The notes under the pieces were generated by a model that saw nothing but the letters and a program-made list of their open reading frames with translations, did no database searches and was not told the origin of the DNA. 64,000 nucleotides of DNA. It comes from Candidatus Nomurabacteria bacterium (lineage in GTDB: Bacteria; Patescibacteriota; Minisyncoccia; Phycocordibacterales; SBAW01). The stretch spans positions 51,339-115,338 of the forward strand of contig CALQZS010000001.1 of assembly GCA_943349945.1 (NCBI GenBank). Direction: 5' to 3'. Position 1 is the stretch's first letter. Each line of letters opens with the position of its first letter. Of the stretch, positions 5,189 through 63,981 are shown one piece after another. Made by a program: the position numbers and the translations under genes.

Positions 5189-5476
5189 CTATTTTCTTTT
5201 CTTGCGGACTTTTTTGGTCGGCACCCCTTCTTCGGGCCATCCGCCATAGTAATTCCACCCCAAAGCCACAGCAAGGCGAAACAGCGTGTATGCATGGGGC
5301 TTTCTGGTAATCCCCTGAGCAAAGTTGCTCACTGTCGCCGGACTCAAGCGCGCACTGTGCGCCACATGACCCCAGTTGACTCCGCGCTGACCATAAGCCC
5401 TGAACAGACGTCCACGCAGGTCGTCTACCCATTCTTCAAAATCAGATTCGTACGGCACGGGCATCTTCCGGGTCAT
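5189..5476 (-). CDS. helix-turn-helix DNA-binding protein, hypothetical
   Basis: Predicted start at MTRKMPV with a GGAG-like RBS. HTH-like segment LSPATVSNFAQG and a basic C-terminal tail (KKVRKKRK). Confidence 0.45.
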   Translation of the reverse strand: MTRKMPVPYESDFEEWVDDLRGRLFRAYGQRGVNWGHVAHSARLSPATVSNFAQGITRKPHAYTLFRLAVALGWNYYGGWPEEGVPTKKVRKKRK

Positions 5477-5751
5477 AGTAGCCCACTCCCCCCTGGAGCA
5501 AAGGCCCATACAACAGCCTCCGGTCCTTGCCGTCCTTTGCCCATACAGTAGACGATGACATCGTCCACAGTAGGGACAGTAGTCTCCCTTTCTTCCAGGA
5601 ATTCGGTCCCCTCGGGGTTCATCTTCCTACCATTTGCAGTATGGAAGAAGAGCCCACGGTGAAAGAGTCTGACCCCAAGGAAACCGAACCCTCCTCCGCT
5701 TCTGTTGGGGTAGAAGCGCACTACTCGCGCGCGTCCTATGGTTGTGTCCAT
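5473..5751 (-). CDS. hypothetical small protein (92 aa) upstream of the HTH gene
   Basis: Internal Met of ORF 5473..5928. The upstream part of that ORF lies in AT-rich promoter DNA. Its stop abuts the start of the HTH gene. Confidence 0.3.
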   Translation of the reverse strand: MDTTIGRARVVRFYPNRSGGGFGFLGVRLFHRGLFFHTANGRKMNPEGTEFLEERETTVPTVDDVIVYCMGKGRQGPEAVVWAFAPGGSGLL

Positions 5752-5920
5752 TAAAAAGAACTCACGTACACCACCTGATTTTCTTTGAACCCAAGCATTC
5801 TGCAAAGGTCTGGCGGCAAACAGACAATACAATTTATATTTAGATATGTCAAATTTCTCAACAACTGGACAGTTTGTCTTAAATATGCTATAATTAAACG
5901 CAGGGAGTAAGGAGGTAAGA

Positions 5921-6400
5921 TTGCACACACTAAAACACTACTGGCTGGGCGCTAACTATGCCCTATACCTGGCGCTCAACGGGAGCATCGACATGGGGTA
6001 CAAAGACCTGAACATGGCTATAGGTACGCTCCAGGCTGTACCAGGCATCCGACACATTCTGCGCAACAAGATCCGCGGGTGGGCTACGCTGGCAGCAGCA
6101 AAGACTACCAGCCACAAGGCCGCAAGCGCACATGAAAAAACGCTTGCGTACATCCAACTGACCTGGGCGCATATTCGCGCCCACTCAACGAGAGCCGATA
6201 CCGAGAAGTCTCTCATGTCGGCACGAAACTTGGTACCCTGGATAACCACAAACACAAAGGAAGAGCGTTTGTGGTATGCCGACAGCCTGAAAAAGATCGG
6301 CGACCTCCACATGGCGATGGGCGGAGTGTATGAGGCGCTTGCCCCAGCATTCTACCAAGAAGCCACTCGCGAAAGAGCAGCCGCCGGACAACAGGCCTAG
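5921..6400 (+). CDS. hypothetical protein
   Basis: Strong SD (AAGGAGG) 7 nt before a TTG start, with a TATAAT -10 element upstream. 159 aa with no recognised motif. Confidence 0.55.
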   Translation: MHTLKHYWLGANYALYLALNGSIDMGYKDLNMAIGTLQAVPGIRHILRNKIRGWATLAAAKTTSHKAASAHEKTLAYIQLTWAHIRAHSTRADTEKSLMSARNLVPWITTNTKEERLWYADSLKKIGDLHMAMGGVYEALAPAFYQEATRERAAAGQQA

Positions 6401-6857: not shown

Positions 6858-6903
6858 ATGCCTCTAGTATACACCCGCCACACAAACCAAACCCGCCTCC
6901 CTC

Positions 6904-6942
6904 TACGAAGGTCAGTCCTTCGTCGAAGGACTGACCTTCGTA
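6904..6942. repeat. perfect palindrome (core 35 nt: cgaaggtcagtccttcg|tcgaaggactgaccttcg), copy 1
   Basis: Exact self-complement. An identical 35-mer occurs at 30898-30932. GGGATAAC-type DnaA-box-like motifs follow at 6951-6985. Confidence 0.9.
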
Positions 6943-6994
6943 AGCCAAGATGGGGATAACTTTTTTGTGGGATAATTAAAGGCTTTTGTTTATT

Positions 6995-7015
6995 TGTGAC
7001 CTCACCGGGAATCAG
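6995..7015. repeat. direct repeat of the tRNA-Glu 3' end, 175 nt downstream of that tRNA
   Basis: tgtgacctcaccgggaatc here versus tgtgaccccaccgggaatc at 7170-7188 (1 mismatch). Confidence 0.7.
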
Positions 7016-7171
7016 CTGCACGAAATTGTTTAATTTTCATGGTCACAAGTCAAATTTTGTCGTCACAAAATTCGCTCGCGACCCCGGCTCGCGATTTTGC
7101 AAGTGCAAAACATCGCTACGCCCGTCCCAAAAGCAGAAAACCTGCCGCAGGGCAGGTATTTCTGTCTTTTG

Positions 7172-7243
7172 TGACCCCACCGGGAATCGAACCCGGATTA
7201 ACGGCTTGAAAAGCCGGCGTCCTAACCGTTAGACGATGGGGCC
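7172..7243 (-). tRNA. tRNA-Glu (anticodon TTC)
   Basis: Cloverleaf GGCCCCA...CTTTTCAAG...GGTTCGATTCC...TGGGGTCA. CCA is not encoded. Confidence 0.85.
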
Positions 7244-7327: not shown

Positions 7328-7414
7328 GGAGAGGTGGCTGAGTGGTCTAAGGCACCGGTTTCGAAAACCGGCATGGGGGAAACCTCATCGAGGGTTCAAA
7401 TCCCTCCCTCTCCG
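7328..7414 (+). tRNA. tRNA-Ser (anticodon CGA)
   Basis: GGAGAGG acceptor stem, anticodon loop TTCGAAA, long variable arm, and T-loop GGTTCAAATCC. Confidence 0.9.
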
Positions 7415-7420
7415 CAAGTA

Positions 7421-7450
7421 AAAAATACGCGCCATTTGGCGCCATTTTTT
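7421..7450. terminator. intrinsic terminator after tRNA-Ser (A-run, GCGCC/GGCGC stem, T-run)
   Basis: Sequence aaaaaatacgcgccatttggcgccatttttt. Confidence 0.7.
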
Positions 7451-7583
7451 AGCGAAGAGGAACAAAGTGCGGGGCACTTTGTGTGAGGTATTTGAAAGCC
7501 GGAACGGGCCCCGGACCAGCAGGTACGGGGGTGAGGCAGGGTCGTGCGGCCAAAGTTGCGACGGGAACTTTGGGACGCCTGAC

Positions 7584-7604
7584 CAAATCCCTCCCTCTCC
7601 GCAA
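7584..7604. repeat. exact 21-nt direct repeat of the tRNA-Ser(CGA) 3' end (caaatccctccctctccgcaa)
   Basis: Identical to 7397-7417. It lies 187 nt downstream of the tRNA, at the left edge of a low-GC island. Confidence 0.85.
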
Positions 7605-7637
7605 AAGTTCGAAATTATAATATGGTATAACTCCTTT

Positions 7638-8237
7638 GTGGACATTGCTGCACAAATTTTAGCATTTTTTGGAAACAACACGCCCCTGGTATCTTTTTTT
7701 GGAGCAATTATAGGTGGCGAAGAAACTCTCGTATTGCTTGTTATTTTTGCAGCGCGAGACACGCTTAACCTTTGGCACATTGTAATCTTTTTTTATGCCG
7801 GAGTAATGGTGTCAGATGCTTTGTGGTACCTGGTCGGCAGATCCAGAGTATTTAATTGGCTCATCACGCACAGACTTACGTTTAATGCATATACCTATTG
7901 GGGAAAGATGCTATACAAAACCATGGGCAACAACACACTGGAAGTATTGTTCATGACTAAATTTTTATATGGTTTTAGAATCCCTACCATCATGTATTTT
8001 GCTCAAGAACGTTTGTCGTTTCGAGCTTTTATACAATACTCACTACTGACCAACTTGATTTGGATGACCATAATCACCGTCTTTGCATGGTTTGCAGGAA
8101 AAGGTATCAAATTTGCTATGCATTTTTCACACAACATTCTCCTGGACGTCTTCCTCATTGGTGTGGTTATGGTTCTTTTTGCTCTTGTTGCTAGAATTGC
8201 CTCAAAGTACACAAAATCATGGCTCCAAAAGAAATAA
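7638..8237 (+). CDS. DedA/VTT-family-like integral membrane protein (start uncertain)
   Basis: Multi-TM protein with a GGEETLVLL segment resembling the DedA PGE..L.LAG motif. It sits in a ~40% GC region. The GTG at 7638 is the first plausible start after the tRNA repeat; the upstream part of ORF 7467..8237 overlaps the repeat and is rejected. Confidence 0.5.
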   Translation: MDIAAQILAFFGNNTPLVSFFGAIIGGEETLVLLVIFAARDTLNLWHIVIFFYAGVMVSDALWYLVGRSRVFNWLITHRLTFNAYTYWGKMLYKTMGNNTLEVLFMTKFLYGFRIPTIMYFAQERLSFRAFIQYSLLTNLIWMTIITVFAWFAGKGIKFAMHFSHNILLDVFLIGVVMVLFALVARIASKYTKSWLQKK

Positions 8238-23096: not shown

Positions 23097-23490
23097 CCCC
23101 GCTTTTGGCGGGGCGTCTACAATATCTAGCGCGCGCGTCTGTAAGCCGAGTTCTGTCTCCGCCGGTTGGCGGAAGCAACAATTTATCTAGCTCGGGCGTT
23201 ACCGCCCGAGTCAAGCGGCACTCCCACACAAGGTGGGCACGGCCTTGCACTTGGACAAGGATTTAGCTCCGACACCCCGAAGGGGTCGGAGTCCCGGTTT
23301 ATTACGTCGGGACCGTTTCACTCCCACTGAAGGGACTCGTCTCTGTTCGCACCTCTGGTGCCCGCTAGCAGCACCCGATGGGGATTACCCACTGCCTGTC
23401 TGCACTCCACATTTCTGTAGAGGCAAGTGCTCGGACTTTCCTCTCTGACTATTCGTCAGAGCTGTTACTCGACGCGCTCTCTATATTGTA
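23097..23490 (-). ncRNA. rnpB: RNase P RNA (bacterial type)
   Basis: On the minus strand: P4 region GAGGAAAGTCCGAGCAC, GGGAGTGAAACGG, ACAGAACTCGGCTTACAG, and P1 pairing between the 23471-23490 and 23120-23140 regions. A hairpin follows at 23095-23116. Ends are approximate. Confidence 0.75.
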
Positions 23491-26480: not shown

Positions 26481-26741
26481 TTATACGTGCTGCATGTGTT
26501 CTGAAGTATATTTCTCCGCAATGGTCATACCCGGCCGGTAGACGAGCTCATGCCTGCCTGGCTTCTTTAGTTTGAAGCGCTCCTGTTGTACGTACACAAG
26601 GCCTTCTTCCGTTCGACGAATACGCTCGCAGAGAAAGACCCGACTGGTCAACACCAGCGCCTGCCCGATACCCGGAATATCGATTTCCGGAAGGCAAAAA
26701 CTGAACGAAGGCGGATATACTTTCTTAGGTTGCGACCACAT
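26481..26741 (-). CDS. hypothetical protein (86 aa)
   Basis: AAAGGAA RBS before the ATG, and a terminator directly downstream. No recognised motif. Confidence 0.35.
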   Translation of the reverse strand: MWSQPKKVYPPSFSFCLPEIDIPGIGQALVLTSRVFLCERIRRTEEGLVYVQQERFKLKKPGRHELVYRPGMTIAEKYTSEHMQHV

Positions 26742-26811
26742 TACGCGTTCCTTTGATAAATCTTGCAGGTACCATACCCTTAAATATAATACATCGAAAT
26801 ATAGAGAAGTA

Positions 26812-26893
26812 AAGCTGCGGAGGCGGAGAAACGATTCGGCTTCGATTCGCTGTCGCGCCGTCGCGCAACAGCGGTCTAGCCACCGCCTCGCAA
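26812..26893 (-). pseudogene. degenerate tRNA-Ser-like relic
   Basis: tgcggaggcggaga...gattcg matches the 3' end of tRNA-Ser(GGA) 190 nt away. Its 5' part (GCGAGGCGGTGGCTAGACC) is tRNA-like but cannot fold. Confidence 0.35.
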
Positions 26894-27007
26894 AAACTTT
26901 CTGCTGAAAGTTTTATGCTCCGGCGTTCGAATCTCTCACGCAAAGTACGCAGGTACTTTGCTCGCCTCTCGCAAAATCAAAACGCCCGTTTTGGGCGTTG
27001 GATTTTG

Positions 27008-27092
27008 CGGAGGCGGAGAGATTCGAACTCTCGGTGGGTTGCCCCACACAGACGTTCCAGGTCTGCGCACTAGACCACTATGCGACGCCTCC
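27008..27092 (-). tRNA. tRNA-Ser (anticodon GGA)
   Basis: GGAGGCGTCGCATAGTGGTCTAGTGCG, anticodon loop CTGGAAC, long variable arm, GAGTTCGAATCTC. CCA is not encoded. Confidence 0.85.
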
Positions 27093-30847: not shown

Positions 30848-30897
30848 CTAGTGAGTGAGTGAATAAAAGGCTAAAAAGTTATCCCCAGTTCTCTCAA

Positions 30898-30932
30898 CGA
30901 AGGTCAGTCCTTCGTCGAAGGACTGACCTTCG
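30898..30932. repeat. perfect 35-nt palindrome, copy 2 (identical to 6906-6940), in the groES-groEL spacer
   Basis: Exact match to copy 1. Flanked by gttatcccca (30879-30888) and tgtggataac (30944-30953), which are DnaA-box-like. Confidence 0.9.
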
Positions 30933-30937
30933 GGTGG

Positions 30938-31321
30938 TTAGTTGTGGATAACTGCGAGAATGCTGCTTTCGGGCAAGATGTAGTACTCTACCCCGCCCAC
31001 CTTTATTTCGTCGAAGCCATACTTAGAGAACATCACTTTGTCGCCAACCTGGACCCCCATAGGCACTAGTTCGTTGTCGTCGCCGCGGCGACCGGGACCC
31101 ACCGCCACTACGGTGCCGTGTTCCGGTTTTTCTTTTGCACTGTCGGGGATAATAAGCCCAAACGAAGTCATCTCTTCGGGAGCTTGGGGCTTGATGAGTA
31201 CGCGGTCGCCCATAGGCAACACGCCCAACTCACCAAATCGACTTGTAGTAGAGGTAACTTTTTTAATGACCTGCTTTTTTGCACCACTGCGCGCGACAAC
31301 TTTTTTCTTAGTTTTTTTCAT
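30938..31321 (-). CDS. groES: co-chaperonin GroES with ~35-aa basic N-terminal extension
   Basis: GroES core (RVLIKP...GTVVAVGPG...GDKVMFSKYG) preceded by MKKTKKKVVARSGAKKQVIKK. Confidence 0.9.
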   Translation of the reverse strand: MKKTKKKVVARSGAKKQVIKKVTSTTSRFGELGVLPMGDRVLIKPQAPEEMTSFGLIIPDSAKEKPEHGTVVAVGPGRRGDDNELVPMGVQVGDKVMFSKYGFDEIKVGGVEYYILPESSILAVIHN

Positions 31322-62584: not shown

Positions 62585-63163
62585 TTAACGAGACTCGCCT
62601 TCAAAGTTAGGTTCGACTATACCCCACTGCATAGTCGATGGGTCAAGCTTTATATATGCGCTCTTGCCCATAGATGGTCGCGCGGTCATCGGCTCGCCAG
62701 GCGCACGGTCGGCATAATTTACCACCACCACATTTTTGTGCCGCGGATTCTGGCTCAGCTCTGTCGTTTGTGGCGCCACCCTGTCGCCAAGCAAGTATGC
62801 GTCCGAGCCCACATACCCACGTGGTGTATTGAGCGCCGCTACTGCATAGTAAAAAGTCCCGCTCCCTCCGGTATTTTGTGTCAAAAGAAATACCACGTCC
62901 TTGCGGCCATCGTTGTTTAAGTCTGCCTCGAGCTCGTTACCAAAATATTTAGTCACCACTTTTGTCGCCGAGCCTGGCGCAGCCTCCGTTTCTACTTCGC
63001 CTCCAGAGAGCTGCACGAGCGTGCCGTCAATGTAGTATGCAGCGTCTTTATAACTTGCCGCACCAGCCGCCTGCTTTTCGTTATAGATATACGTGTTAAA
63101 CGCAAAAAACCCACCCACTGCGACAATAATAAGACTTAGACTCCCCCATAGCCATGTATTCAT
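62585..63163 (-). CDS. hypothetical membrane-anchored protein
   Basis: N-terminal TM segment and a soluble domain with no recognised motif. Confidence 0.45.
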   Translation of the reverse strand: MNTWLWGSLSLIIVAVGGFFAFNTYIYNEKQAAGAASYKDAAYYIDGTLVQLSGGEVETEAAPGSATKVVTKYFGNELEADLNNDGRKDVVFLLTQNTGGSGTFYYAVAALNTPRGYVGSDAYLLGDRVAPQTTELSQNPRHKNVVVVNYADRAPGEPMTARPSMGKSAYIKLDPSTMQWGIVEPNFEGESR

Positions 63164-63221
63164 ATGGATACAGTATATCAAATACAACTACTCTGATTTC
63201 CGCAAACCATGCTCCAAACTT

Positions 63222-63242
63222 TTGCTGCCAGACTAGGATTCG
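63222..63242. repeat. exact 21-nt direct repeat of the tRNA-Gln 3' end (ttgctgccagactaggattcg)
   Basis: Identical to 63411-63431, with an offset of 189 nt. Confidence 0.8.
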
Positions 63243-63413
63243 GTCACGAATCACTAACTATTTTACTTCGGCACCTCGTAAAATACTAAGTGTTCTCGAC
63301 CCCGACTCAAAAATTCATTCCCCGAACGAATTTTTTCCGTCCTTCGAATCCTCAACTTCAAGCAGATTAGCGCACAGAAAAACCGCCCTCTCGGGCGGCC
63401 ATCTGTGCGCTTG

Positions 63414-63484
63414 CTGCCAGACTAGGATTCGAACCTAGATAAACAGATTCAGAGTCTGTTGTCCTACCATTAGACGATCTGGCA
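63414..63484 (-). tRNA. tRNA-Gln (anticodon CTG)
   Basis: U1:A72 acceptor (TGCCAGA / TCTGGCA), anticodon loop CTCTGAA, GGTTCGAATCC. CCA is not encoded. Confidence 0.85.
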
Positions 63485-63597
63485 ATGTAGGCGCATCATA
63501 ACGAGAAAATGGCTTTATTTCAAGCATACAAAGGCCACTGACACCACAAAACAGTGGTACTATAGAAGCATTAGTTATTAGCGATATATAGCACTAT

Positions 63598-63981
63598 ATG
63601 GAAACGACTATCTTCCTTGCGCAGATATGGGGCCCGGTCATCTTTGCAGTGGGTCTGGGTATTTTTGTTAGCCGCGATTACTACATCAAAATCTATCGCG
63701 ATCTCGAAAAAGAAAAGTTTGCCGCACTGGTGTTTGGCATGATGGCTATTGCCGCCGGCGCCGCACATATTGGGGTACACAACACCTGGGGCACTTTGCC
63801 CGAGATTGTTATCAGCTTTCTTGGTTGGGGGCTGTTTGCCAAAGGTGCAGTGCTTGCTATTGCACCAAAGTTTGCCGACAAAGCTGGCGACTGGACAGTG
63901 CGCTCTAAAATGGTCCCTGCAGCGGGCGGCTTTGCCTTACTGGTGGGTGTCTACCTCTCGTGGCTTGGATACTTGGTCTAA
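63598..63981 (+). CDS. hypothetical 4-TM membrane protein
   Basis: 127-aa hydrophobic protein. Confidence 0.5.
   Translation: METTIFLAQIWGPVIFAVGLGIFVSRDYYIKIYRDLEKEKFAALVFGMMAIAAGAAHIGVHNTWGTLPEIVISFLGWGLFAKGAVLAIAPKFADKAGDWTVRSKMVPAAGGFALLVGVYLSWLGYLV

Follow-up and report, generated by a model that had tools for sequence, protein, structure and literature searches.

A tRNA-Gln(CTG) gene lies at 63413-63484 on the minus strand of the window, by which we mean the whole 64-kb stretch of DNA analysed here. It was placed by both ARAGORN and Rfam (Rfam tRNA, 66.9 bits). The CCA end is not encoded in the gene, and CAA directly follows the discriminator G. A sigma-70-like promoter match (TTGAAA-17-TATGAT, 63495..63523, minus strand, consensus match only) is found just upstream, and no second promoter-like site is seen in 63100-63650. 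The sequence TTGCTGCCAGACTAGGATTCG has two exact plus-strand occurrences in the window, at 63222-63242 and 63411-63431. Read in the tRNA-Gln sense it is CGAATCCTAGTCTGGCAGCAA, which runs from T-loop C56 to discriminator G73 and continues with CAA. Copy 1 (63411..63431, minus strand) is the functional tRNA-Gln 3' end with its CAA trailer. Copy 2 (63222..63242, minus strand) forms the distal end of a non-coding unit behind the tRNA gene, and the starts of the two copies are 189 nt apart. An exact 21-nt copy of the tRNA-Gln 3' end plus CAA trailer, 189 nt downstream, is what the preliminary description had reported; both coordinates are confirmed, and the ARAGORN and Rfam placement agrees with it. 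No match to the repeat, with 3 mismatches tolerated, was obtained in any of 100 dinucleotide-preserving shuffles. Among 19 same-species contigs with the neighbouring gene, three independently assembled ones carry the Gln locus base for base, so it is not an assembly artefact; no polymorphism is observed within the species in these three contigs.

The Gln unit extends from the base after tRNA C74 to C74 of the downstream copy, i.e. about 178 nt plus the 19-21-nt repeat. It is built, in this order, of a terminator-like hairpin (P0), a 5' arm, a two-hairpin core and the tRNA-tail copy, all on the minus strand. P0 (GCGCACAGA...TCTGTGCGC, 63370..63410) has an inner GC stem and, together with a T run, makes up a terminator-like structure at 63381-63400. 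This is the strong hairpin which had been noted immediately behind the tRNA. In tRNA-Gln, the T-loop, the T-stem and the 3' strand of the acceptor are complementary to the 5' arm (CTGCTTGAAGTTGAGGATTCGAA, 63343..63365). With either tail copy as partner, this arm can form a helix P1 of 15 pairs (-19.8 kcal/mol). Helix P2 (63304..63341) has a GAC/GUC base and a G-GA/GA internal loop with a variable hairpin on top. In helix P3 (GGUCGAG...CUCGUGACC, 63242..63301) a G.U pair is almost invariant, the distal stem is variable, and the final base of the helix is the first base of repeat copy 2. No promoter match of its own is found upstream of the unit.

A covariance model of the conserved core, which covers the T-side of P1 as well as P2 and P3, matches the Gln unit at 63231..63356 (minus strand) with 110.6 bits (E = 4e-31; this sequence belonged to the seed alignment). 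Four significant matches are found in the window, behind tRNA-Gln, tRNA-Ser(CGA), tRNA-Ser(GGA) and tRNA-Glu (E from 4e-31 to 1.6e-8), while the fifth-ranked match has E = 0.7. The Ser(CGA) unit (7416..7604, plus strand, 67 bits) follows tRNA-Ser(CGA) at 7328-7415 and consists of a hairpin (7420-7450), a 5' arm including an extra hairpin (7452-7496), a core (7483-7595) and an exact 21-nt tail copy 187 nt downstream (7584-7604, plus strand). The Ser(GGA) unit (26816..27006, minus strand, 63.5 bits) lies behind tRNA-Ser(GGA) at 27007-27092, with a hairpin at 26973-27006, a 5' arm at 26926-26972, a core at 26827-26939 and an imperfect tail copy about 190 nt downstream (26816-26838, minus strand). 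A degenerate Glu unit (6993..7170, minus strand) is observed behind tRNA-Glu at 7171-7243. It has a hairpin (7129-7170), a core (7041-7122) and an imperfect tail copy about 175 nt downstream and 27 nt past the core (6993-7013, minus strand); having been left outside the seed alignment, it still scores 35.1 bits (E = 1.6e-8). Thus the pattern of a tRNA gene plus a tail copy does recur four times, as had been claimed when the Gln locus was counted as the fourth instance in the window, with the qualification that of the other three only the Ser(CGA) copy is exact. The four units stand behind four different tRNAs, and every arm and tail copy fits its own tRNA. Half of the tRNA genes in the 64-kb window bear a unit.

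The three-part DNA pattern of the unit is matched by at least 120 metagenomic loci. The spacing is 166-209 nt, the structured core measures 110-130 nt, and at least 10 tRNA species and more than 100 loci are involved. The fold is well conserved: 94.5% of cells are paired versus 79% in shuffles, 266 compensatory double changes are observed versus 79 in shuffles, and slid-alignment controls reach at most 41% paired. Compensatory changes are present in helices 2 and 3, the G.U pair is almost invariant and the G-A internal loops are kept. The spacer between the two repeat copies, for which a check of conservation had been suggested, is thus a member of a conserved structured family. The tRNA-sense strand is the more stable one in 93 of 96 unit sequences. 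At the position of P0 a strong hairpin is found family-wide (the spacer of about 61 nt has a median fold energy of -25 kcal/mol, n = 70), accompanied by a T run in 48 of the 70 units. Such strong structural conservation, including the tandem G-A loops, would suit a cellular RNA equally.

The boundaries of the units are precise. In all 70 tRNA-adjacent examples the identity block begins at T-loop C56; its modal length is 19 nt and its end is typically the discriminator or C74. CAA is the usual trailer of the tRNA itself. For copy 2 the more frequent trailers are CCA, CCC or CCT, which would fit a displaced original tail. Gene-encoded CCA is found in 3 of 71 unit-bearing tRNAs versus 20 of 70 unit-free tRNAs in the same loci (p = 7e-5). 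The junction sequences are GGTT|CGAA and GTGAC|CGAA; the bases left of copy 2 form a conserved (G/C/T)TGAC which is paired inside P3, and every T-loop-derived base is paired in P1 or P3. The terminal helix P1 mirrors the acceptor and T stems of the neighbouring tRNA and ends at the discriminator. In 26 elements with identical copies, arm and tail form on average 3.6 of 4 T-stem pairs and 5.9 of 7 acceptor pairs, the random expectation for the latter, as the best of 46 offsets, being 4.9. An apparent retention of the arm while copy 2 decays (25 versus 3) stemmed from conditioning on diverged copies and was discarded; without this conditioning, arm and tail copy do not differ (3.49 versus 3.21 of 4, p = 0.2).

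No family in Rfam 15 matches the unit, and the window's matches at gathering score are tRNA and RNase P RNA only. In a relaxed search (E <= 10) of the Gln and the Glu/Ser(CGA) regions, the units are overlapped only by weak, sub-threshold matches, which are extensions from the adjacent tRNA or short low scorers. The tRNA-like matches (RF00005, a sub-threshold mascRNA-menRNA and a weak permuted tmRNA) lie on, or start within, tRNA genes. A hammerhead and a canonical K-turn were compared by eye and rejected, since strand order and the 1-nt bulge disagree. Nor does the extra arm hairpin imitate the long variable arm by which class II tRNAs are known; units of Ala, Asn and Trp tRNAs have it too, and many Ser units lack it. 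Full-text literature searching gave no description of the unit. The non-coding unit of about 190 bases behind Patescibacteria tRNA genes is previously uncatalogued.

The distribution of the units is patchy. The flanks of contigs L302 and L221 are 99.6-100% identical, and the two are distinguished by a single, precisely bounded unit of 197 nt immediately behind tRNA-Ser, where 19 nt (C56 to C74) are duplicated. With no more than 83% identity to an older unit further downstream, the additional unit is no local tandem duplication. This polymorphism probably reflects active insertion or excision. The same difference would alternatively arise by deletion between the 19-nt repeats instead of insertion. 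A metagenome contig, L244, is 89% identical to the window from the first base of tRNA-Gln to near the end of copy 2, of which it lacks the last two bases (the AA of the trailer); its flanks are unrelated and show no further match to the window. In a search for tail copies, 4 of 96 stretches from species-representative genomes with the identical 19-nt tRNA-Gln tail carry a unit (L058, L062, L065 and L068); the covariance model scored L058, L062 and L068, and also L066, which lies behind tRNA-Ile. The hosts of these five units are Paceibacterota, Saccharibacteria and unclassified Patescibacteria. The preliminary description had made its case depend on conservation of the arrangement at orthologous tRNA-Gln loci. 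Such conservation is absent: all five species whose tRNA-Gln gene equals that of the window have empty sites. The absences are scattered as they would be for a mobile insert, not as for a chance repeat, and the suggested test does not suit this locus. Comparison through the downstream gene is uninformative because synteny is broken, the relatives at 86-89% protein identity having no tRNA-Gln there.

Tandem arrays of units, with degenerate distal tail copies, are observed at L302, L264, L245, L238 and L307. Units also bracket horizontally acquired genes of mobile type (EcoRV/Dam restriction-modification, ParB-methylases, HTH/IrrE, GIY-YIG and HNH nucleases); such unit-cargo-unit arrangements exist, and cargo is absent from most units. 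The three-part pattern has no match in 2.9 million viral contigs, blastn of the unit against phage and plasmid records returned nothing, and a free form was seen neither there nor in the viral contigs. An origin as a phage attP was considered and rejected. Two two-part patterns in viral contigs matched random coding DNA at chance rate, and relatives (L333, L334) of the phage-like DNA neighbouring one unit have no unit themselves and rely on a large serine recombinase.

A search for integrases out to 4.5 kb from 126 elements, through the fully covered cargo islands and across the window finds none; tyrosine recombinases, including IntI, are likewise missing from the loci. Y1 transposase, reverse transcriptase, TnpB and IscB are found neither beside the units, nor in fully covered islands, nor among the window ORFs. 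No Y1 HUH transposase (TnpA/RAYT) was seen in the 64-kb window, and no IS110 recombinase, TnpB, IscB or Cas12k in the loci or the window. The Pfam negatives for the window rest partly on the best-scoring 25 of 82 matched families, so that a weaker recombinase match is possible. Clustering of the ORFs around the 126 elements yields housekeeping synteny groups only, and DUF3800, considered as an associated family, occurs once (L223) and is not general. Since an enzyme is absent from all the searched neighbourhoods, the mobility enzyme invoked below is purely inferred.

We lean towards the reading that the 21-nt repeat is a target (attachment-site) duplication, made when a small, non-coding and non-autonomous mobile unit inserted at the tRNA 3' end; on balance this is probable. 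The unit would move, or be recognised, as a tRNA-sense single strand of RNA or ssDNA. Its arm, probably the targeting determinant, would pair with the tRNA-tail sequence, and the resulting helix would imitate the target or recognise it. The joining enzyme would be encoded at another place in the genome; it would attach the unit at the T55/C56 step of the tRNA gene, which is equivalent to joining after C74 and would leave the tail duplicated. After insertion, the terminator-like hairpin of the unit would end the tRNA transcript. This hairpin ahead of the unit, together with the lack of an own promoter, is awkward for an RNA intermediate. The unit may also be an enzyme-less parasite of tRNA maturation, which is processed from read-through RNA and returned by its arm to the cognate tRNA gene, an idea that we regard as speculative and unlikely. 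Here the segment of about 190 nt between the two discriminators would be freed by the cell's own tRNA-end processing, because P1 makes the 3' end of the unit tRNA-like. The freed RNA, perhaps circular, would fold into a rod in which arm and tail are paired, and the 19-nt arm would steer the unit back via reverse transcription or an RNA-/ssDNA-guided recombinase.

Many of the same features could be expected of a cellular non-coding RNA gene that is tied to its cognate tRNA and read through from the tRNA promoter, its gains and losses being ordinary turnover. RNase Z cuts CCA-less tRNA precursors endonucleolytically. RNase Z-type cuts after both discriminators and RNase P cleavage at the 5' end of the arm would give a product of about 150-190 nt with its ends paired in an acceptor/T-stem-like helix; the role of this product might be that of a tRNA-tail mimic, a decoy or a regulator. 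Strong covariation with the almost invariant G.U pair and conserved G-A loops, good folding confined to the tRNA-sense strand, a helix P1 that repeats the acceptor and T-stem pairing of the tRNA beside it and the lack of a nearby mobility gene all suit such an RNA. So do the association with CCA-less tRNA genes and the fact that the unit ends are the 3'-processing positions of such tRNAs. However, a terminator-like hairpin stands ahead of the unit and no own promoter is found, distal copies in arrays decay, and P1 has no compensatory upkeep once the tail copy drifts. Most related species do without the unit at the same tRNA, while it occurs in unrelated flanks (L244) and as a strain-level indel (L302/L221). 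The T-loop bases are moreover all paired, and the RNA would therefore be without a tRNA elbow. We thus take a cellular RNA to be possible, though somewhat unlikely.

A direct repeat from the T-loop to the 3' end, as present here, is the textbook mark of tRNA-targeted integration, and the four loci could in principle be scars of integrase-mediated prophages or islands, mostly deleted, with attL and attR about 190 nt apart as in a CIME-like remnant. Some units do border real cargo islands, and at L267, where a phage amidase gene lies a few hundred bases upstream of the unit, phage-homologous DNA ends exactly at the first hairpin of the unit. But independent deletions would not leave the same core and spacing behind so many tRNA species and loci, an integrase remnant was found nowhere searched, the three-part pattern is missing from the viral contigs, and the bases left of the crossover (GTGAC) form no inverted core repeat as expected for a tyrosine-recombinase site. 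Scars of this kind are accordingly improbable. That the repeat arose by chance, by local tandem duplication of the tail or through faulty assembly has nothing in its favour beyond the shortness of the repeat; the empty shuffles, the identical sequence in independent assemblies and the compensatory base-pair changes in the family make its probability practically negligible.

The genomes of Patescibacteria (CPR) are tiny, and few mobile elements have been recognised in them. If mobile, the unit would be among the smallest known site-specific elements, with a target-complementary arm of its own and no enzyme next to it. It would then point to a trans-acting recombinase still to be discovered, or to insertion guided by nucleic acid and perhaps reprogrammable via the arm. 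Mobility would also account for these tRNA genes being CCA-less, for tRNA transcripts ending at an imported terminator, and for defence genes such as restriction-modification piling up behind Patescibacteria tRNAs. Were the unit a parasite of tRNA maturation, it would represent a new class of guide-bearing mobile elements with a guide complementary to the tRNA tail; were it a cellular RNA, it would be a widespread, well-structured and tRNA-specific RNA class. Because gene callers place spurious ORFs across the unit, it should enter the catalogues of RNAs and of mobile elements.

A comparison with known systems shows partial likeness to several of them. As in tRNA-targeting integrative elements and CIMEs, a direct repeat from the T-loop to the tRNA end bounds the insert, the proximal copy restores the tRNA gene, insertions stack at one tRNA, cargo islands can lie between copies and the occurrence among relatives is patchy. 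Precise presence and absence among close relatives, by which integrative elements are recognised, is also observed here (L302/L221 and the empty identical tRNA-Gln sites). In contrast to them, the whole unit is about 190 nt long, non-coding and without an integrase at the tRNA-proximal end, its interior is a covarying single-strand fold and not a set of protein arm sites, and it carries an inverted, tRNA-specific arm. There are also no inverted core-type recombinase sites, the (G/C/T)TGAC not being a copy of the T-stem 5' strand. The tRNA-like RNAs (tmRNA domain, viral structures, mascRNA, YrlA) share with the unit 5' and 3' ends that pair as acceptor plus T stem, but the unit is without T-loop or elbow and without D or anticodon mimics, and its extra arm hairpin is not confined to class II tRNAs.

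Integron attC arrays are similar in that structured single-strand sites vary in sequence and keep their pairing, tandem arrays occur with or without intervening ORFs, the newest unit adjoins a fixed site, the integrase need not adjoin and the crossover lies beside a GTT triplet. However, the fixed site is here a tRNA gene and not attI, no IntI is found, the R-box GTTRRRY is replaced by GTTCGAA, and the unit folds as a three-way junction whose core bases are conserved, instead of as a simple bulged hairpin. Like the IS200/IS605 PATEs and REP/RAYT elements, the unit is short and non-coding, has hairpins near both ends (P0 and P3) and a strand-specific single-stranded fold, and is presumed to be mobilised in trans. 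In IS608, a stretch inside the element and beside a hairpin pairs with the sequence at the target or cleavage site, and the arm of the unit, next to a hairpin, likewise pairs with target sequence. Members of the IS200/IS605 family, in contrast, use 4-5-nt targets without duplication, whereas the unit has a 19-21-nt tail on both sides and no sequence or Rfam similarity to known RNAs of that family. The guide RNAs of mobile elements (IS110 bridge RNA, TnpB/IscB omega RNAs and homing crRNAs) differ from the unit, which has no nearby effector gene and no Rfam match and whose arm and tail copy can pair with each other, as guide RNAs do not. Some homing crRNAs of CRISPR-associated transposons target tRNA genes. 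With these guide RNAs the unit shares a conserved scaffold joined to a segment of about 19 nt which matches or complements the target, and it is encoded right beside its insertion target.

The tRNA-Gln(CTG) gene is located on the minus strand at 63413-63484 (ARAGORN and Rfam) and does not encode CCA. Its 3' end is repeated exactly downstream, as the preliminary description had reported. The 21-mer TTGCTGCCAGACTAGGATTCG is found at 63411-63431 (copy 1) and at 63222-63242 (copy 2), with no third site in the window at up to 3 mismatches, and 0 of 100 shuffled sequences match the repeat. On the tRNA strand it reads CGAATCCTAGTCTGGCAGCAA and extends from C56 of the T-loop to the discriminator G73, followed by CAA. 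The strong hairpin described straight behind the tRNA is also found, as a 41-nt element at 63370-63410 with an inner GC stem and then a T run, and it scores as an intrinsic terminator. The same layout is observed behind three more tRNAs, which agrees with the earlier count of four instances in the window: tRNA-Ser(CGA) with an exact 21-nt copy at a spacing of 187 nt, tRNA-Ser(GGA) with an imperfect copy at about 190 nt, and tRNA-Glu with an imperfect copy at about 175 nt. A covariance model built on a 65-core alignment, with the Glu unit outside the seed, gives four significant matches over the window: Gln (110.6 bits), Ser(CGA) (67), Ser(GGA) (63.5) and Glu (35.1 bits, E = 1.6e-8). The next best match has E = 0.7. 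The tRNA-Val, tRNA-Phe and tRNA-Gly genes of the window encode CCA and have no tail copy; tRNA-Arg(CCT) has neither.

Alignment of the four window spacers and three from other genomes reveals a common plan. A hairpin (P0) lies immediately behind the tRNA. It is followed by a 5' arm that complements the acceptor 3' strand, T-stem 3' strand and T-loop of its own tRNA and ends in GATTCGAA. P2 consists of a GNC/GNC base, a G-GA/GA internal loop and a variable hairpin, and P3 is formed by GGUCGAG ... CUCGUGACC around a variable stem, with the tail copy directly 3' of it. The arm can form a helix, P1, with either tail copy. In the Gln unit P1 has 15 pairs (-19.8 kcal/mol); in the Ser(GGA) unit it is near-continuous, with an extra hairpin between the acceptor-like and T-like portions.

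The RNAalifold consensus of 65 non-redundant cores contains 24 pairs, and compensatory changes occur at 16 of these. Standard pairs occupy 94.5% of the cells compared with 79.0% in shuffles, a value reached by 0 of 500 shuffles and somewhat favoured by taking the structure from the same alignment. Cells changed on both sides number 266 versus 79 in shuffles, and at most 41% of cells are paired when the partner is slid by 1-3 columns. In 93 of 96 sequences the more stable fold is that of the sense strand (mean difference 8.5 kcal/mol), which also contains 233 G.U pairs versus 98 in the complement. The folded species thus has tRNA-sense polarity, and the structure is under selection on that strand; the data fit RNA and single-stranded DNA alike. 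A tandem G-A motif, GNC-G-GA ... GA-GNC, is found family-wide at the base of P2 (alignment A4, columns 16-24/62-69), and a second conserved one, UGAGC-GAAG-CGAA, in the P3 loop. The G.U pair of P3, kept in 64 of 65 sequences, adjoins the three-way junction. These motifs and the G.U pair look like protein-binding or tertiary-contact motifs. P1 behaves differently from P2 and P3 across the family. The arm strand and the copy-2 strand each track the tRNA sequence and rarely change together away from it; P1 is thus without in-place compensatory evolution. An apparent tendency of the arm to stay tRNA-complementary while copy 2 decays (25 versus 3 among diverged copies) was rejected as an artefact of selecting diverged copies: without selection, at four T-stem positions, arm complementarity is 3.49 and copy-2 identity 3.21 of 4 (p = 0.2).

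The spacer has no match in Rfam 15, at gathering scores or at relaxed E-values up to 10, and our full-text literature searches found no description of the unit. The family is large and uncatalogued. The 19-nt tRNA-Gln tail was found in 96 stretches of species-representative genomes, mainly Patescibacteria, and is copied behind tRNA-Gln in four of them (L058, L062, L065 and L068). The covariance model scored L058, L062 and L068, together with a unit behind tRNA-Ile in L066; the carriers are named Paceibacterota, Saccharibacteria and 'Patescibacteria group'. The question whether the spacer is conserved, raised in the preliminary description, has a divided answer: a structured family extends across genomes, but the site is empty in all five species whose tRNA-Gln is identical to that of the window. 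A three-part pattern, GATTCGAA-N25-55-GGGTCGAG-N30-60-TGACCGAA, with 24 specified bases and, by our own estimate, a handful of chance matches, was found in metagenome contigs at no fewer than 120 loci with at least 126 elements. Three metagenome matches that resembled random coding sequence were left out. The pattern has 0 matches in 2.9 million viral contigs. A same-strand tRNA lies directly upstream in 71 of the 126 elements listed (Ser 39, Tyr 10, Ala 9, Asn 3, Trp 3, Lys 2, Val 2, Gln 2, Thr 1), within the TTCGAA T-loops to which the pattern confines matches. The remaining elements are mostly at contig ends, in tandem arrays or past cargo genes.

A comparison of two contigs, L302 and L221, shows gain or loss of a unit directly. 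Their tRNA-Ser flanks are 100% and 99.6% identical, L302 contains an extra 197-nt unit directly behind the tRNA, and the alignments of the two flanks have 19 nt in common, the tRNA tail C56-C74. The extra unit is only 83% identical to an older unit further downstream and thus does not come from local duplication. Between another contig, L244, and the window, 89% identity extends from the first tRNA-Gln base to two bases short of the end of copy 2, the final two repeat bases (the AA trailer) being absent from L244, and the flanks are unrelated in DNA and protein. C56 is always the first base of the identity block, and the last is most often the discriminator or C74; the modal length of the exact run is 19 nt. 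The trailer behind the tRNA is CAA in 31 of 70 cases. Behind copy 2 the bases vary more, and CCA, CCC or CCT are commoner (20 of 126), the pattern that a displaced original tail would give at copy 2. CCA is encoded by 3 of 71 unit-followed tRNAs versus 20 of 70 other tRNAs at the same loci (Fisher p = 7e-5).

In tandem arrays, which comprise two or three units, the tRNA-adjacent copy is intact and the distal copies are degenerate. Some units are separated from the tRNA by genes, at a distance of 0.7-4 kb. In L240 and L283 an EcoRV-type endonuclease, a Dam methylase and a DUF5655 protein are found between two units behind tRNA-Ala; this small unit-bracketed defence island (L240:1-5824, and L283), with a D12 Dam methylase and a complete EcoRV-type enzyme, has no recombinase. 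Other cargo between tRNA and unit includes ParB-methylases, an HTH/IrrE pair, and GIY-YIG and HNH nucleases. Upstream of the unit in L257 and L267, where no tRNA was detected, there is phage-homologous DNA that includes a phage-type amidase. The homology of L267 to viral contig L333 ends exactly at the first hairpin of the unit, which is absent from viral relatives of this phage-like DNA; the case shows tRNA tails to be insertion hot spots and is no demonstration of a phage-borne unit. In L333 (14000-18200, IMGVR_UViG_3300025154_002045) the homology stops at ...CACCGCC, past which ORF translations, from which functions were read instead of a family search, suggest a LexA-like repressor, a nucleotidyltransferase-like gene, a large serine recombinase and a type I restriction subunit. 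The ends of L223:1-3200 (metagenome contig JACCDH011157894.1) overlap exactly over 127 nt inside a unit, which implies a 3,073-bp circle or else cargo between two identical units; a DUF3800 protein gene lies straight downstream of the unit, with three small ORFs lacking a Pfam match. The unit behind tRNA-Gln in a Paceibacterota MAG (L068:2317-2640) has an arm complementary to the tRNA tail at all 19 nt. Further downstream a second, partial tRNA copy begins within the anticodon stem, which marks a different type of integration, of the anticodon-loop class; a similar copy without a unit is present in L037 and L051. In a Rubrobacteraceae MAG (L030:2420-2640, contig CADCVD010000041.1) a tRNA-Gln-like gene that ARAGORN does not call seems to have a T-arm interruption of ~150 nt (GTCTACAG ... 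CTGTAGATTCGAATCCTAGTCTGGCAGC) and possibly represents a tRNA whose intervening sequence occupies a non-canonical position.

Several other features were observed in the window. Three neighbouring ORFs (106, 151 and 159 aa) without a Pfam match at 5189-6400, adjoining the tRNA-Glu/tRNA-Ser(CGA) pair, could be part of a small acquired segment. A 64-nt direct repeat (6898-6961 and 30890-30953, 84% identity), with the near-perfect palindrome CGAAGGTCAGTCCTTCG.CGAAGGACTGACCTTCG at its centre, lies ~50 nt past the tRNA-Glu unit and in the groES-groEL intergenic spacer, and could be REP-like or terminator-like. Mechanical ORFs of 94-131 aa run antisense across units at 63154-63438 (+), 7385-7780 (-) and 26572-26907 (+). 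The conservation of these translations between genomes reflects only that of the unit core (LDPDS, for example, is read from CTCGACCCC), and gene callers are likely to place spurious hypothetical proteins there. The bacterial class A RNase P RNA at 23126-23480 (-) scores 106.3 bits, barely at the Rfam gathering score of 100, which suggests a divergent or reduced form.

We favour, with moderate confidence, the reading that the unit is mobile and the 21-nt repeat a target duplication. A non-autonomous element of ~178 nt would insert into a particular tRNA gene at its 3' end, duplicating C56-C74. It would give the tRNA a new trailer and a terminator-like hairpin, explaining the CAA trailers and the missing encoded CCA. 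The arm is the only part besides the tail copy that varies with the tRNA, and it complements the target; we infer that base pairing in a single-stranded intermediate could specify the target, with arm and tail paired as P1 and flanked by P0 and by P2/P3. These single-strand, arm-guided details are tentative. The unit boundaries match the cut points of CCA-less pre-tRNAs, after the discriminator, so an RNA stage is possible, but the upstream terminator-like hairpin speaks against efficient transcription. A guide-bearing element exploiting tRNA-end processing or a nucleic-acid-guided recombinase is a further, unlikely reading.

The main rival reading, that the unit is a cellular RNA gene linked to tRNAs, is rather doubtful. 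The selected fold is open to an RNA as well; no promoter-like site is found before the unit, the sole site in the region serving the tRNA, and closely related loci differ by the presence of a unit. Scars of ordinary integrases, which might leave such a boundary repeat, are quite improbable. No integrase, transposase, reverse transcriptase or RNA-guided nuclease is found near units, in fully covered islands or among the window ORFs, where the result covers the best 25 of 82 matched Pfam families and a weaker recombinase hit is possible. The window ORFs belong to housekeeping genes such as FtsZ, GroEL/ES, an aminoacyl-tRNA synthetase, RNase J and an AcrB-type transporter. A chance repeat or artefact has practically no weight beside the shuffles and the tRNA-Gln locus itself, which is identical at every base in three contigs of the same species that were assembled independently (19 contigs carry the neighbouring gene).

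IS200/IS605 elements rely on pairing between a guide and the cleavage site, and integrons on folded attC sites. By analogy, the former would resemble the arm/target pairing of the mobile unit and the latter its folded logic, but the unit fails the defining tests of both. IS200/IS605 insertion makes no duplication, whereas that of the unit is long; the integron R-box consensus is absent from the unit, and the window and the fetched loci yielded neither Y1 transposase nor IntI. Among known kinds, the unit comes closest to the tRNA-targeted integrative element with its non-autonomous remnants. Such elements have an integrase and inverted core sites, both of which the unit lacks, but they share with it the boundary repeat and the insertion polymorphism. 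The unit has, in addition, a conserved single-strand fold and an arm complementary to the target.
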